DNA from: Candidatus Aenigmatarchaeota archaeon
GTDB lineage: Archaea > Aenigmatarchaeota > Aenigmatarchaeia > CG10238-14 > SCSR01
DNA length: 41,085 nt
Assembly (NCBI GenBank): GCA_038998625.1
Contig: JAWADS010000004.1
Coordinates: 1 to 41,085, forward strand
Reading direction: 5' to 3'
Below are positions 36,001 to 39,000 of this stretch, one piece after another (within the stretch, counting starts at the first letter, position 1; the number at the start of each line of letters is the position of its first letter). Position numbers: made by a program.

Positions 36001-39000
36001 AAGGGTAAAAATTTTTTCTTCAGCGAATTTTTTAATAAAGGCTTCTTCTATATCAAATTTAGATAATTCTTCAATATTCATAAAATACAAAAAGGATTAA
36101 CGAAAAATAAATTTTATTTAAAAATTTTTGACATTAGAATATTAGAATGATTTGCCTTGGCCTAGAACACACAGCACATACCTTTGGTGTTGGAATTATT
36201 ACAGATAAGGGAAATATTCTAGCTAATGAAAAGGATATTTATAAACCTATTATAGGAAAAGGAATCGTTCCTACTGAAGCAGCCCAACATCATAAAAAAG
36301 TAAAGGAAAAAATTTTAAAAGCTGCCTTAAAAAAAGCAAATCTAGATTTAAAAGATGTGGATATCATTGCTTATTCTGCAGGTCCAGGTTTGCCTCCCTG
36401 CCTTTTAGTAGGAGCAAATTTTGCAGAAGAGCTTACAAAGAAATATGAAAAACCTTTAGTCTTAGTAAACCATGCTGTGGCTCATTTGGAAATTGGTCGT
36501 TTAACTACAAAAACCAAAGATCCGGTTTATGTATATCTCTCTGGTGGGAACACTCAGATAATTGCTTTTATAGGAAACAGATATAGAATTTTTGGCGAAA
36601 CGCAAGATATTCCAATAGGAAATTGTTTAGATGTGGTGGCAAGAAAAATGAATTTGCCTATGCCTGGTGGCCCGGAAATAGAAAAATTGGCTAAAGGAGG
36701 AAAATATGTAGAATTGCCCTATGTTGTTAAAGGAATGGATTTATCTTTTAGCGGTATACAAACCGCGGCAATAAAATTGATAGAAAAAGGTGTTCCGAAA
36801 GAAGACGTTGCCTATTCTTTACAAGAAACTTGTTTTTCTATGCTTACTGAAGTTACAGAAAGAGCTTTGGCCCATACTAAAAAAGAAGAAGTTTTGTTGG
36901 TGGGAGGAGTTGCGGCTAATAAAAGATTACAAGAAATGATAAAAGTGATGTGTGAAGAAAGGGGAGCTAAGTTTTTTGTTGTGCCGGAAGAATATTCTGG
37001 AGATCAGGGAGTAATGATAGCTTGGACGGGAATATTGGCTTATAAATCAGGATGGAAACCCGACTTTAAAGATAAAATTAAACCCAATTGGAGAATTGAT
37101 CAAGTTTCAATTACTTGGATTTAAACTTGAATGCAAACTATTTTTTCTTTCTTTTCAACCAAGCGACTAGATTTATTACAATAAGTACCACAACAATAAT
37201 CGGTGCAATAAAAGCGGTCCATAGAAGCAACCAAAGGTATTTTCCATGTATGGTAAAGGCTAAAATAAATGGACCTGCCAACAAGAAAATTAATATAGCG
37301 ATTAAAACTAAATTTATTATTTTAAGACTTGACATTGTTGATCGATATACTTTTTAAGCAAAAAATTTTGAATTAAATTAACTCATTCTCGCTAACTATT
37401 ACGAAGTCGCCAACAGATTTTACAGCACTGAAGGGAATTAAGTATCTCCCTTTTTCATCCGTCTTGAGATTCAATTCAATCAAATGCTTTGTTGCCTGGT
37501 CCACAATTAGATTTAACAATTCTCCGCTTTCAGTAACAAAATCGATATTTGATACGACCCCAAATTTTCTTCCTGTTTCTTCACTAATAACTTGTTTGCC
37601 CATTATATCACCAGCTCTTATTCTAGTTTCTGCCATAAACATCACCATATAATATTTTGTATTTATGAATTTAAAATCTTTTCATGAGGGTCTTTATTGG
37701 AATTTTTGTGCCAGATGATTTAAAGGAAAAAATATTAGATTTACAGAATCAAATAAAAAATTTGCCGCTAGAAGTAAAAATGGTTGAGGCGGAAAACCTT
37801 CATATAACTTTGTCATTTTTAGGCGAAATTTCTGAAGAAAAAATAATGTTAATAAAAGATAAATTAGATCAAATCACAAAAAAACATAAAAAATTTGAAG
37901 CAAATATTAATGGAATAAAATTAATCCCAAATCAAAATTACATTCGAGTAATAGCTTTGGATGTTATTAGCAATGAGCTAAATAGAATTAGTCATGAAAT
38001 TAAAGAAATTATTGGTGGGGATGTGAAACCGCCGCATTTAACTTTATGCCGTGTGAAGAATATCTCAGACAAAAGTAATACTGTTCGTCAATTATTAAAA
38101 TTAGGGTTGAAAGAAGTTATAGAAATTAAATCCATTTGCATAATAAAAAGTGTGATTAAAAAGACGGGTCCGGAATATTCATCTTTATATGAAAGTAATT
38201 TAATTTAACTTATTCAAAACTTTTTTTCTGTTTAAAGATTTTATATAAAAATTAATTGAGTTTTCTTCATTTCTTAAAAATTTTATAAAATAAGCTAGCT
38301 CTTCTAATTTTGCGATTTTGAACGTAGATTTAAACAAACTTGAAAGAAAAATGACCTTTAAATGATGAGCTTCAAAATATTTTTTAAGAAAACTATACAT
38401 TCTTCTCCCTTCCTTATCAAAATCTGTTAAAATAACTACTTCCTTAAATTTGCTTACAATATCATCAGCAATTTTTATTAAAGAATTCCCAGATATCGCA
38501 ACAACATTTTCAAAACCTAATTCTAATAAAACTTTCTTATCTCTAATCCCTTCTACAATAACTGGTTTATCTTTATAGATATCTATTTCCTTCAGAAATT
38601 TTTGAATTTTTGTCTCACTCAACATATTCACTTAAAAAATTCTTTCTAATATATCTCTTTCAGTAATTATCCCAACTAAGTTTTTATTATCGTCAGTGAC
38701 TAAAATGCCTCCCACATCCTTTTCAACCATTAACCTCAAGGCCTGAGAAACATCTTCATCACTTTTAATAGTAATTGGACTCCTTTTAACTAAAAAATCT
38801 ATTGGCGCATGCAAATCTTCATATCGATACTCATGGGTTAAAATATAATTTATCAGGTCTGATGATGTAACAATTCCAACTAAATTCTTACCATCCATAA
38901 CAGGCAACCTTCTATAATGGGAGTTGACAATGCTTTTTAAGCAATCGTAGATTGAAACTTTGTTAGAAATTATTAATGGTTTTCTTGTCATCACTTCTTC

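Follow-up and report, generated by a model that had tools for sequence, protein, structure and literature searches.

Sua5 deleted and Kae1 and Bud32 retained in a Candidatus Aenigmatarchaeota genome, with recurrent absence of Sua5 across its class

The Kae1 locus and the vacated Sua5 sites

The window, by which the whole analysed stretch of 41,085 nt is meant, is contig C4 of the source genome (G000; 469,094 bp in 19 contigs, 91.8% complete, G+C about 31%), and genome size and gene content suggest that the organism is a host-dependent archaeon. Comparisons covered 61 genomes of the order and a wider class sample of 198 genomes with a completeness of at least 85%. Features of the locus, together with the Bud32 gene on contig C1, were as follows.

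33886..36090, minus strand: Hel308-type archaeal helicase (PF21280, PF00270, PF00271), divergent from Kae1, upstream anchor
36147..37124, plus strand: Kae1, KEOPS threonylcarbamoyl transferase, 325 aa, no Bud32 fusion (PF00814, TIGR03722)
37125..37372, no strand: 248-nt spacer, deletion site, by synteny the Sua5 position of G094, G053 and G089
37373..37648, minus strand: PRC-barrel protein (PF05239, E 1.4e-8), convergent with Kae1, downstream anchor
37684..38208, plus strand: LigT-type 2H phosphoesterase (PF02834, E 7.7e-21), synteny anchor
38200..38631, minus strand: Toprim-domain protein (PF13662, PF01751), synteny anchor, as in G094, G011 and G031
38632..40004, minus strand: two CBS-domain proteins, 38632-39435 and 39432-40004 (PF00571)
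G000 contig C1, 11226-11861, plus strand: Bud32, 211 aa (TIGR03724, 231 bits, cut-off 125)

Three gene contexts of Sua5 in relatives were compared with G000. In the first, G094 carries the order Hel308, Kae1, Sua5, PRC-barrel, LigT, Toprim, CBS. The same order minus Sua5 is seen in the window, in G011 and in G031; a gap of 2 nt separates the Kae1 ORF of G011 and of G031 from the PRC-barrel ORF, at the position that Sua5 occupies in their congener G094. Hel308 homologues lie upstream of Kae1 in G094, G011, G031 and G089 (in G053 a fragment, at the edge of the locus) and at a distance of up to about 300 nt from it in 31/57 relatives, while the PRC-barrel gene is found immediately 3' of Kae1 in 38/57 relatives and 3' of Kae1-Sua5 in G094, G053 and G089. 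The LigT position is common to G094, G011, G031, G053 and G089, and a homologue of the second CBS protein (39432-40004), also a synteny anchor, comes after Toprim in G094, G011 and G031. The sole ORF of the 37125..37372 spacer encodes a hydrophobic peptide of 65 aa (37138-37335, minus strand) with no Pfam match; the spacer itself had no Rfam match, and a tblastn search in it for a Sua5 remnant returned noise only.

In the second context (G012, G013, G018, G021, G032, G033 and G035) Sua5 stands between the CCA-adding enzyme and ThrRS; the corresponding region of G000 on contig C9 is N-free and has different genes at the Sua5 position, and the congener G001 is colinear with it. Two types of ThrRS occur within the family, so ThrRS identity is unusable as a species proxy. 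The third context, Sua5 beside the EF-1beta block, was seen in G006, with similar flanks in G030. Because all three contexts are contiguous in G000 and without Sua5, its loss in this lineage is a true deletion and not an assembly gap. Sua5 is also absent from a genome assembled as a single contig (G145) and from one in 4 contigs (G110).

Kae1, Bud32 and the partners that were sought

Kae1, described in the genome-wide survey's note as well conserved, is intact. The ORF matched PF00814 at E 3.2e-83 (279.9 bits) and the NCBIfam model arch_KAE1 (TIGR03722) at 468.1 bits (cut-off 375) over model positions 1-323 of 323, and M. jannaschii Kae1 (8unk_K) aligned with it end to end (1-325, E 9.3e-114). 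Among the sequences of 55 relatives 41 columns are invariant, H109, H113 and D286 included; these residues and the stretches S132-G134 and G253-V255 are invariant in 55/55 and align to identical residues of M. jannaschii Kae1. Going by the Kae1 structure literature, we take H109, H113 and D286 to be the metal-binding His-His-Asp and the glycine motifs to be nucleotide-binding. Columns with at least 95% conservation numbered 82 of 325 in 27 Sua5-less sequences and 67 of 325 in 28 Sua5-bearing ones, and the majority residue differs between the two groups at one column only. The dN/dS of Kae1 was 0.06-0.20 in eight Sua5-less sister pairs and 0.03-0.13 in five Sua5-bearing pairs. Kae1 is not relaxed in Sua5-less lineages, the conservation of Kae1 and Bud32 being equal to that in Sua5-bearing relatives, and purifying selection on Kae1 and Bud32 has been ongoing since the Sua5-less sister species split.

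Bud32, the ATPase/kinase partner in KEOPS, is present in G000; it was aligned with M. jannaschii Bud32 (E 4.8e-42) up to the final residue of the chain (203 of 203), and its motifs and C-terminal tail are preserved in 12 Sua5-less and 9 Sua5-bearing sequences. The position 11226-11861 given for it by the survey is correct for contig C1; at these coordinates the window, contig C4, contains an integrase-like ORF and not Bud32.

Pcc1 and Cgi121, which the survey had not detected in G000, were not found by profile searches either. For Pcc1, PF09341 gave zero matches in G000 and a 20-sequence lineage HMM a best E of 0.16. The operon on contig C10 that runs from L37Ae to prefoldin-beta has nothing but a zinc-ribbon ORF of 42 aa plus some 60 nt at the place where relatives have Pcc1; Pcc1 has been deleted in G000 from this conserved ribosomal-protein/prefoldin operon, and the KEOPS of G000 is without it. 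For Cgi121, PF08617 was over cut-off in 0/61 genomes of the order, with or without Sua5, a result to be read with only 3 of 4 control archaea positive. Pcc1 was undetected across the 27-member Kae1 clade of G000, seven genomes of which still have Sua5, and only three clade-specific Kae1 columns were found when a remodelled Pcc1 surface was sought. In passages of two published accounts, an H. volcanii pcc1 deletion is stated to keep 80% of its t6A (PMC3814370), and Cgi121 to be dispensable in vitro and missing from Drosophila (PMC9654439). Since Sua5 persists in seven genomes of the Pcc1-less clade, and in view of H. volcanii pcc1 and the Cgi121-less Drosophila, Pcc1 and Cgi121 may be dispensable.

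The survey's statement that G000 has no Sua5/TsaC/YrdC domain stood up to every search. PF01300, run in six frames, found no candidate in G000, not even with the threshold relaxed to E<=10, and was positive in 14/14 control genomes; a 6-sequence lineage Sua5 HMM with filters off reached a best E of 0.12 on G000, and a 12-sequence Sua5 HMM a best E of 0.27 against all 11,766 G000 stop-to-stop segments of at least 20 aa; hhalign for Sua5 over all 568 G000 ORFs of at least 110 aa gave a top probability of 10%. A TC-AMP synthase of this family is the member of the t6A pathway that G000 lacks. Weak tblastn matches of relatives' Sua5 at G000 C1:70.9-71.7 kb were dismissed as chance; they fall inside a 756-aa surface-layer-like protein. 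TobZ/NodU-like ORFs, in which a Kae1-like and a YrdC-like domain are combined in ~570 aa, were considered as a hidden Sua5 and rejected for G000; such fusions occur in some relatives with and without Sua5, and not in G000, G024, G110 or G054.

It is improbable that the cell itself still makes TC-AMP with a synthase that is non-homologous or too divergent to be recognised. Numerous G000 ORFs belong to no family, some of them unknown ORFs at the vacated site on contig C9 (8658-10568), and the unchanged Kae1 site suggests that TC-AMP remains available; yet a YrdC-like signal is absent by Pfam, by both lineage HMMs and by hhalign, the congener G001 has another gene at the vacated CCA-enzyme/ThrRS site, and a replacement would have to precede every independent loss. 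The 341-aa family-less ORF at C9:9546-10568 was tried as a replacement synthase and rejected; it occurs in 2/61 genomes, namely G000 and the Sua5-bearing G042.

Spread of Sua5 absence among relatives

Over the 61 genomes of the order, Sua5 was above the cut-off in 32 and Bud32 in 57, and Kae1 was found in 60; among the 29 Sua5-less genomes Kae1 is kept in 28, and Bud32 is over cut-off in 28. Mean genome size was 0.61 Mb for Sua5-less (n=29) and 0.78 Mb for Sua5-bearing (n=32) genomes. In the 198-genome class sample Sua5 was present in 133 and Kae1 in 194, and 64 of the 65 genomes without Sua5, among which is the single-contig G145, have Kae1. On the Kae1 tree 10 state changes of Sua5 were counted, of which well-supported branches make 8 unavoidable, and the absences cluster by lineage (0/500 label shuffles equally low). 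Genus g11 includes both Sua5-less and Sua5-bearing genomes. The survey's picture of one clade that lost Sua5 does not hold: the absence is spread over many families with at least 8-10 state changes, g11 being mixed. Some of the Sua5-bearing states may be re-acquisitions, because a 12-sequence Sua5 tree separates Kae1-adjacent from relocated copies (99 SH-aLRT).

That Sua5 is present and was simply missed, on an unassembled or unbinned piece of incomplete bins, is a thought invited by the completeness of G000 (91.8%, in 19 contigs) and by relatives that are mostly draft bins. The gap between Sua5 and Kae1 is much too large for genome incompleteness to account for, Sua5 missing from 65 and Kae1 from 4 of the same 198 genomes; the lineage clustering, matched by none of the 500 label shuffles, also speaks against such an artefact, as do the three contiguous and empty syntenic sites, the Sua5-less single-contig G145 and the 2-nt junction of G011 and G031. 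We consider it highly improbable.

A supply from the host, and comparison with known systems

The likeliest reading, to which we give a probability of about 0.45, is that Kae1-Bud32 is still a t6A transferase and that TC-AMP or Sua5 comes from the host. Kae1-Bud32 would be a two-subunit reduced KEOPS that carries out the reaction for which its active site, unchanged, is made: moving threonylcarbamoyl from TC-AMP onto position A37 of tRNAs that decode ANN codons. The cell's own enzyme would no longer produce TC-AMP; the host would supply it, either as host Sua5 protein or as TC-AMP itself passing across the cell-cell contact. We know of no TC-AMP transporter or protein-import route for this, and of no precedent for Sua5 import between two cells. 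A pre-existing host source would, moreover, be needed at each of the at least eight state changes. In passages of the published work, host supply was already proposed for Nanoarchaeum equitans, with TC-AMP transfer judged unlikely at 90 °C (PMC10321239); decay of TC-AMP within minutes (PMC9654439) counts against the supply as well, and against a two-subunit KEOPS stands P. abyssi Kae1-Bud32, which minus Pcc1 had no detectable activity in vitro (PMC3814370).

The tRNAs and their downstream enzyme do not bear on the question. Four confidently called tRNAs with NNU anticodons keep A37, which is expected with or without t6A and hence uninformative; the A37 census from aragorn was noisy owing to many non-canonical introns (one Met-CAU with a 45-nt intron was ambiguous). 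TrmO, a t6A-dependent downstream enzyme, was not found in G000, which is uninformative on t6A.

A sizeable but less probable alternative is that t6A has been abandoned, an AT-rich, ANN-codon-rich genome being translated without it, and that Kae1-Bud32 is kept for a t6A-independent essential job, for example in genome maintenance or recombination. Such a role has been attributed to KEOPS in yeast and Saccharolobus. Sua5 disappeared repeatedly and Kae1 and Bud32 were not lost along with it; a useless gene pair is unlikely to persist at a dN/dS of ~0.1 in genomes of 0.4-0.7 Mb, and transfer of an unstable metabolite becomes unnecessary. Two published passages point the same way: KEOPS genes of S. 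islandicus were undeletable despite complementation with a bacterial t6A system (PMC10989989), and G000 is without Pcc1, which the P. abyssi enzyme needed for t6A in vitro (PMC3814370). However, the extra function in S. islandicus uses all subunits, Pcc1 and the undetected Cgi121 included, and is tentatively tied to DNA binding by Cgi121 (PMC10989989, as far as its excerpts go). The invariant metal/nucleotide site of Kae1 fits unchanged chemistry best, though another function might share the site, and at ~31% G+C ANN codons should abound, which would make loss of t6A costly. It is conceivable, although less probable than not, that about one-third of the class is t6A-free and that Kae1-Bud32 without Sua5, Pcc1 and Cgi121 serves an essential function unrelated to tRNA threonylcarbamoylation.

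Sua5/TsaC and Kae1/TsaD are among the 60 or so protein families that are regarded as universal. Earlier exceptions were two cultured nanoarchaea and unverified absences in metagenomic lineages; in the present case Sua5 has truly been deleted, its absence is common (65/198), and the second-step enzyme is under undiminished selection every time. These lineages are natural replicates for asking whether an unstable adenylate or an enzyme is shared across a cell-cell contact, or whether archaeal Kae1-Bud32 has an essential job apart from t6A; if the t6A-free reading were true, two roles of KEOPS would have been separated in nature repeatedly, at least eight times. Caution is advised when Sua5 or Pcc1 are used as universal markers for the completeness of such genomes.

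Kae1 and Bud32 of G000 are close orthologues of those in the P. abyssi KEOPS, in which, in passages of Perrochia et al. 2013 (PMC3814370), Kae1 is a metal-dependent TC-AMP-binding transferase and Bud32 its ATPase partner; the minimal active set there is Pcc1, Kae1 and Bud32, whereas Pcc1 was not detected in the Kae1 clade of G000. With S. islandicus, as excerpted from Wu et al. 2023 (PMC10989989), the likeness lies in a reason why archaeal Kae1 and Bud32 might be indispensable apart from t6A levels, but that organism has five subunits, each essential, as well as Sua5, and in G000 only Kae1 and Bud32 were detected. The survey's proposal of a natural counterpart of the S. islandicus role is weakened in this way: the role involved every subunit, including Pcc1 and Cgi121, which were undetected in G000. 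Mitochondrial Qri7/OSGEPL1 is similar as a minimal transferase without Pcc1 or Cgi121 whose TC-AMP synthase (Sua5/YRDC) is the product of a gene outside the compartment and enters it by import; Qri7 is, however, a homodimer without Bud32, and Kae1 of G000 is of the archaeal KEOPS type with Bud32 kept (passages in PMC9654439 and PMC10321239).

The closest parallels are N. equitans and Nanobdella aerobiophila, both without Sua5/TsaC in the passages concerned of Pichard-Kostuch et al. 2023 (PMC10321239). Their genomes of 0.49 and 0.67 Mb compare with 0.47 Mb for G000, and N. equitans likewise kept KEOPS genes where Sua5/TsaC is gone; G000, being Sua5-less with Kae1 and Bud32 in a strongly reduced genome, is of the N. 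equitans type. The readings offered there were t6A-free life or TC-AMP/Sua5 from the host, so the survey's concept is not a new one and was, with both its explanations, already published (PMC10321239). In the same paper, by the legend of its Supplementary Figure 1, Sua5/TsaC was counted per DPANN taxon, and metagenomic absences were left undecided (PMC10321239). Unlike in N. equitans and Nanobdella, the deletion site has here been located within a conserved gene order, the loss recurs over many families of one class (65/198) and is polymorphic in one genus, and it is joined by deletion of Pcc1.

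Kae1, Bud32 and the vacated Sua5 sites

The assembly of the genome under study, G000 (469,094 bp in 19 contigs, completeness 91.8%, contamination 0.28%, about 31% G+C), was described in the genome-wide survey's note as keeping Kae1 and Bud32 and lacking Sua5. The window corresponds to contig C4 of this assembly. Kae1 was confirmed by PF00814, by the NCBIfam equivalog arch_KAE1 (468 bits, cut-off 375) and by full-length alignment with M. jannaschii Kae1 (8unk_K, from KEOPS-tRNA structures; E 9.3e-114). Bud32, placed by the note at 11226-11861, was found there on contig C1, outside the window, and its alignment with M. 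jannaschii Bud32 extended to the last residue of that chain.

Features around Kae1 in the window, and Bud32
33886-36090, Hel308, upstream of Kae1
36147-37124, forward strand, Kae1 ORF, 325 aa (PF00814, E 3.2e-83)
248-nt spacer between Kae1 and PRC-barrel, site of Sua5 in relatives
37373-37648, PRC-barrel
37684-38208, LigT
38200-38631, Toprim, then CBS proteins
Contig C1, 11226-11861, Bud32, 211 aa (arch_bud32, 231 bits, cut-off 125)

Window positions 11226-11861 overlap an integrase-like ORF (11004-11816, forward strand, 270 aa; PF16795, archaeal phage integrase, sub-threshold at 24.8 bits, cut-off 27), which may mark an integrated element. The genome is archaeal in character because of arch_KAE1, arch_bud32, an archaeal ThrRS editing domain and an archaeal CCA-adding enzyme, and from its small size we infer a host-dependent, DPANN-type organism. 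Its tRNA genes contain many introns, often at non-canonical positions; over all contigs aragorn called 13 tRNAs without and 26 with intron search, several of those plainly miscalled, and two tRNAs in the window (15106-15189 and 33112-33200) were confirmed by Rfam.

A six-frame search of G000 with PF01300 yielded no Sua5 candidate even at E≤10, with controls positive in 14/14 genomes. A profile built from the Sua5 of six relatives (single-domain, TsaC-type proteins of about 200-215 aa) was run with filters off against every ORF of at least 40 aa (best E 0.12), a profile of 12 sequences against the complete set of 11,766 stop-to-stop segments with 20 aa or more (best E 0.27), and a Sua5 alignment by hhalign against all 568 ORFs of at least 110 aa (probability at most 10%). 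The absence claimed in the note was thus borne out by PF01300, two lineage profiles and hhalign. Weak tblastn matches were rejected as chance; all fell within a Thr/Ala/Gly-rich 756-aa protein with a hydrophobic N-terminal segment (C1, 69188-71455) that looks like a surface-layer protein.

The absence of Sua5 is a deletion and not an assembly gap, because all three contexts in which relatives carry the gene are contiguous and empty in G000. The first context is Hel308(-), Kae1(+), Sua5(+), PRC-barrel(-), LigT(+), Toprim(-), CBS(-) in the relative G094, and Kae1-Sua5-PRC-LigT is common to G053 and G089, of another family. Neither a trace of Sua5 nor an Rfam family was found in the 248-nt spacer of the window; two congeners of G094 (G011 and G031) show the same order without Sua5, their Kae1 and PRC-barrel ORFs being 2 nt apart. 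In the second context Sua5 is flanked by the CCA-adding enzyme and ThrRS (G012, G013, G018, G021, G032, G033 and G035). On contig C9 of G000 (17 kb, no N) this interval is taken up by a YbaK-type editing protein and three other ORFs: a small membrane one, one of 78 aa and one of 341 aa without a family. Sua5 is likewise missing from the colinear congener G001 and from this interval in G019. In the third context Sua5 adjoins the EF-1beta block in G006, with similar flanks in its congener G030, and this block is intact on C9, Sua5 being absent.

The 341-aa ORF (C9, 9546-10568) has no Pfam family and occurs elsewhere only in G042 (35% identity). An unrecognised endogenous TC-AMP synthase is improbable: nothing spoke positively for one, and this candidate at the vacated site is present in only 2/61 genomes, one of which has Sua5. 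Two kinds of ThrRS were seen in the family, the 555-aa type of G000 (C9, 11204-12877), 45-73% identical in some genera, and one of about 625 aa with a catalytic core only about 30% identical; in genus g31 of family f5 and in G042 an ORF of its own, about 135 aa long, encodes the archaeal editing domain.

Recurrence of the loss among relatives

Within a set of 61 genomes (G000 and 60 relatives), Sua5 was over the cut-off in 32, Kae1 was found in 60 and Bud32 was over the cut-off in 57, the exceptions being G015 (two pieces), G044, G049 and G057. The 29 Sua5-less genomes had Kae1 in 28 (not G038) and Bud32 over the cut-off in 28; their mean size (rounded values) was 0.61 Mb vs 0.78 Mb for the 32 with Sua5. 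When the sample was widened to 198 genomes at least 85% complete, all carrying the same class label, Sua5 was present in 133 and Kae1 in 194, with Kae1 kept in 64 of the 65 Sua5-less genomes. Absences were concentrated in some families (with Sua5: f1 25/40, f5 1/13, f8 5/12, f9 0/3, f12 1/4, f22 2/6) and rare in others (f18 16/16, f27 7/7, f29 7/7, f30 19/21, f31 14/15). At E≤10 the 4-contig G110 gave no Sua5 match, and the single-contig, 0.9-Mb G145 only a 22-bit match in a 676-aa TobZ-like ORF. That Sua5 is present and was missed through an assembly artefact is hardly credible, since gene order, the 65 absences of Sua5 vs 4 of Kae1 and the single-contig genome all but rule it out.

Placed on a single-gene Kae1 tree of 58 sequences (without the partial genes of G027 and G029, and G038), the Sua5 label required 10 changes, gains and losses being indistinguishable; 8 were forced by branches with SH-aLRT of at least 95, and 0/500 label shuffles gave a count as low. 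In a 12-sequence Sua5 tree the Kae1-adjacent copies (f1, f4, f8, f21) were split from relocated f1 copies with SH-aLRT 99, and therefore some Sua5-bearing states may be re-acquisitions.

The smallest relative, G038 (0.3 Mb, 81% complete), has Bud32 and Pcc1; Kae1, Sua5 and a match to the G000 ThrRS protein were not detected in it, perhaps because the genome is incomplete or has been reduced still further. ORFs of about 550-680 aa with weak TsaD and YrdC matches (G004, G012, G018, G019, G020, G021, G025, G039, G042, G051, G053, G059, G145) probably encode carbamoyltransferases of the TobZ/NodU type, in which a Kae1-like domain is joined to a YrdC-like one; genomes with and without Sua5 have them, and none was found in G000.

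A TsaD of bacterial type (TIGR03723, 367 bits, cut-off 296; about 30% identical to G000 Kae1) occurs in two genera of a sister family, at G044:C1:103872-105559, G049:C3, G057:C6, G090:C10 and G091:C18 and C20. Immediately next to it stands a 358-388-aa ORF matching PF01300 and PF02367 (TsaE), which looks like a TsaC-TsaE fusion; neither an archaeal Bud32 above the cut-off nor a stand-alone TsaB was seen in these genomes. Since in G044 and G049 the TsaD is followed by the PRC-barrel gene that follows Kae1 elsewhere, gene order suggests replacement of Kae1 in situ.

PF08617 (Cgi121) was over the cut-off in 0/61 genomes, Sua5-bearing or not, with a model of limited reach (over the cut-off in only 3/4 archaeal controls). 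PF09341 (Pcc1) was over the cut-off in 22/61, including six Sua5-less genomes outside the clade of G000 (G009, G038, G043, G045, G048, G051), and in 0/27 members of the well-supported Kae1 clade containing G000 (20 Sua5-less, 7 Sua5-bearing). Pcc1 is well conserved among relatives, and a 20-sequence profile gave a best E of 0.16 in G000. In 18/20 relatives Pcc1 sits in a conserved operon directly ahead of prefoldin-beta, and in 16 of these it follows L37Ae. The operon is present on contig C10 of G000 (2299-3064), where only a 42-aa zinc-ribbon ORF (2544-2669) and about 60 nt separate L37Ae from prefoldin-beta; a 10-N scaffold gap (2789-2798) falls within the prefoldin gene itself, downstream of where Pcc1 would be. 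Pcc1, like Sua5, has been deleted in G000. This looks like a pathway eroded step by step: Cgi121 is undetectable order-wide, a large clade lacks Pcc1, Sua5 has disappeared repeatedly, and Kae1 and Bud32 remain.

Selection on Kae1 and Bud32 and a possible source of TC-AMP

With three bacterial-type sequences excluded, 82/325 Kae1 columns were at least 95% conserved in 27 Sua5-less vs 67/325 in 28 Sua5-bearing sequences, and the majority residue differed in only one (Y/F76). Invariant across all 55 were 41 columns, including S132-G134, G253-V255 and H109, H113 and D286, the His-His-Asp set that serves as metal ligands. For Kae1, pairwise dN/dS ranged over 0.06-0.20 among eight sister pairs lacking Sua5 and over 0.03-0.13 among five pairs that have it, ratios that are rough because dS (0.7-1.7 in most pairs) was near saturation. 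Bud32 from 12 Sua5-less and 9 Sua5-bearing genomes had 36 invariant columns in common, among them the C-terminal tail and the motifs of the catalytic loop. Both proteins are kept under undiminished selection, with no decay or shift.

Since the constraint on every Kae1 column stays the same after loss of Sua5, the most economical interpretation is that the chemistry is unaltered. Kae1 would go on passing threonylcarbamoyl from TC-AMP to A37, and a host would provide either its Sua5 protein or the adenylate. We hold this tentatively, at a probability of about 0.45. Against it, we know of no route by which TC-AMP or Sua5 passes between cells. Also against it are the inactivity in vitro of P. abyssi Kae1-Bud32 without Pcc1 (PMC3814370, where metal-dependent TC-AMP binding by Kae1 is also stated) and the decay of TC-AMP within minutes (PMC9654439). 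Missing Pcc1 and Cgi121 would not necessarily prevent transfer: seven genomes of the Pcc1-less clade have Sua5, a pcc1 deletion in H. volcanii retained 80% of t6A (PMC3814370) and Cgi121 was dispensable in vitro (PMC9654439). Retention of Kae1-Bud32 would be explained equally well by a t6A-independent role, which we regard as possible though rather unlikely; its precedent is S. islandicus, where, however, the extra KEOPS function involved all subunits, including Pcc1 and Cgi121, neither of which was detected in G000 (PMC10989989).

Comparison with known systems

Loss of Sua5 in DPANN archaea is a known concept, the sole treatment found being PMC10321239. There, N. equitans, which keeps KEOPS, and Nanobdella are the only cultured organisms without Sua5/TsaC, and the protein is undetected in Undinarchaeota and Huberarchaea, its real absence there being left open by the authors. 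New relative to that paper are the place of the deletion, how widely and repeatedly Sua5 has been lost, and the within-genus polymorphism; the finer pattern may overlap with its Supplementary Figure 1, which gives Sua5/TsaC sequence counts per DPANN taxon. The parallel loss of Pcc1 and the demonstration of unchanged constraint on Kae1 and Bud32 are also new. Supply by the host, as considered here for G000, is the same proposal already made for N. equitans by Pichard-Kostuch et al. (PMC10321239), who also point out that TC-AMP is unstable and name the import of Sua5 into mitochondria as a precedent for transfer of the enzyme.
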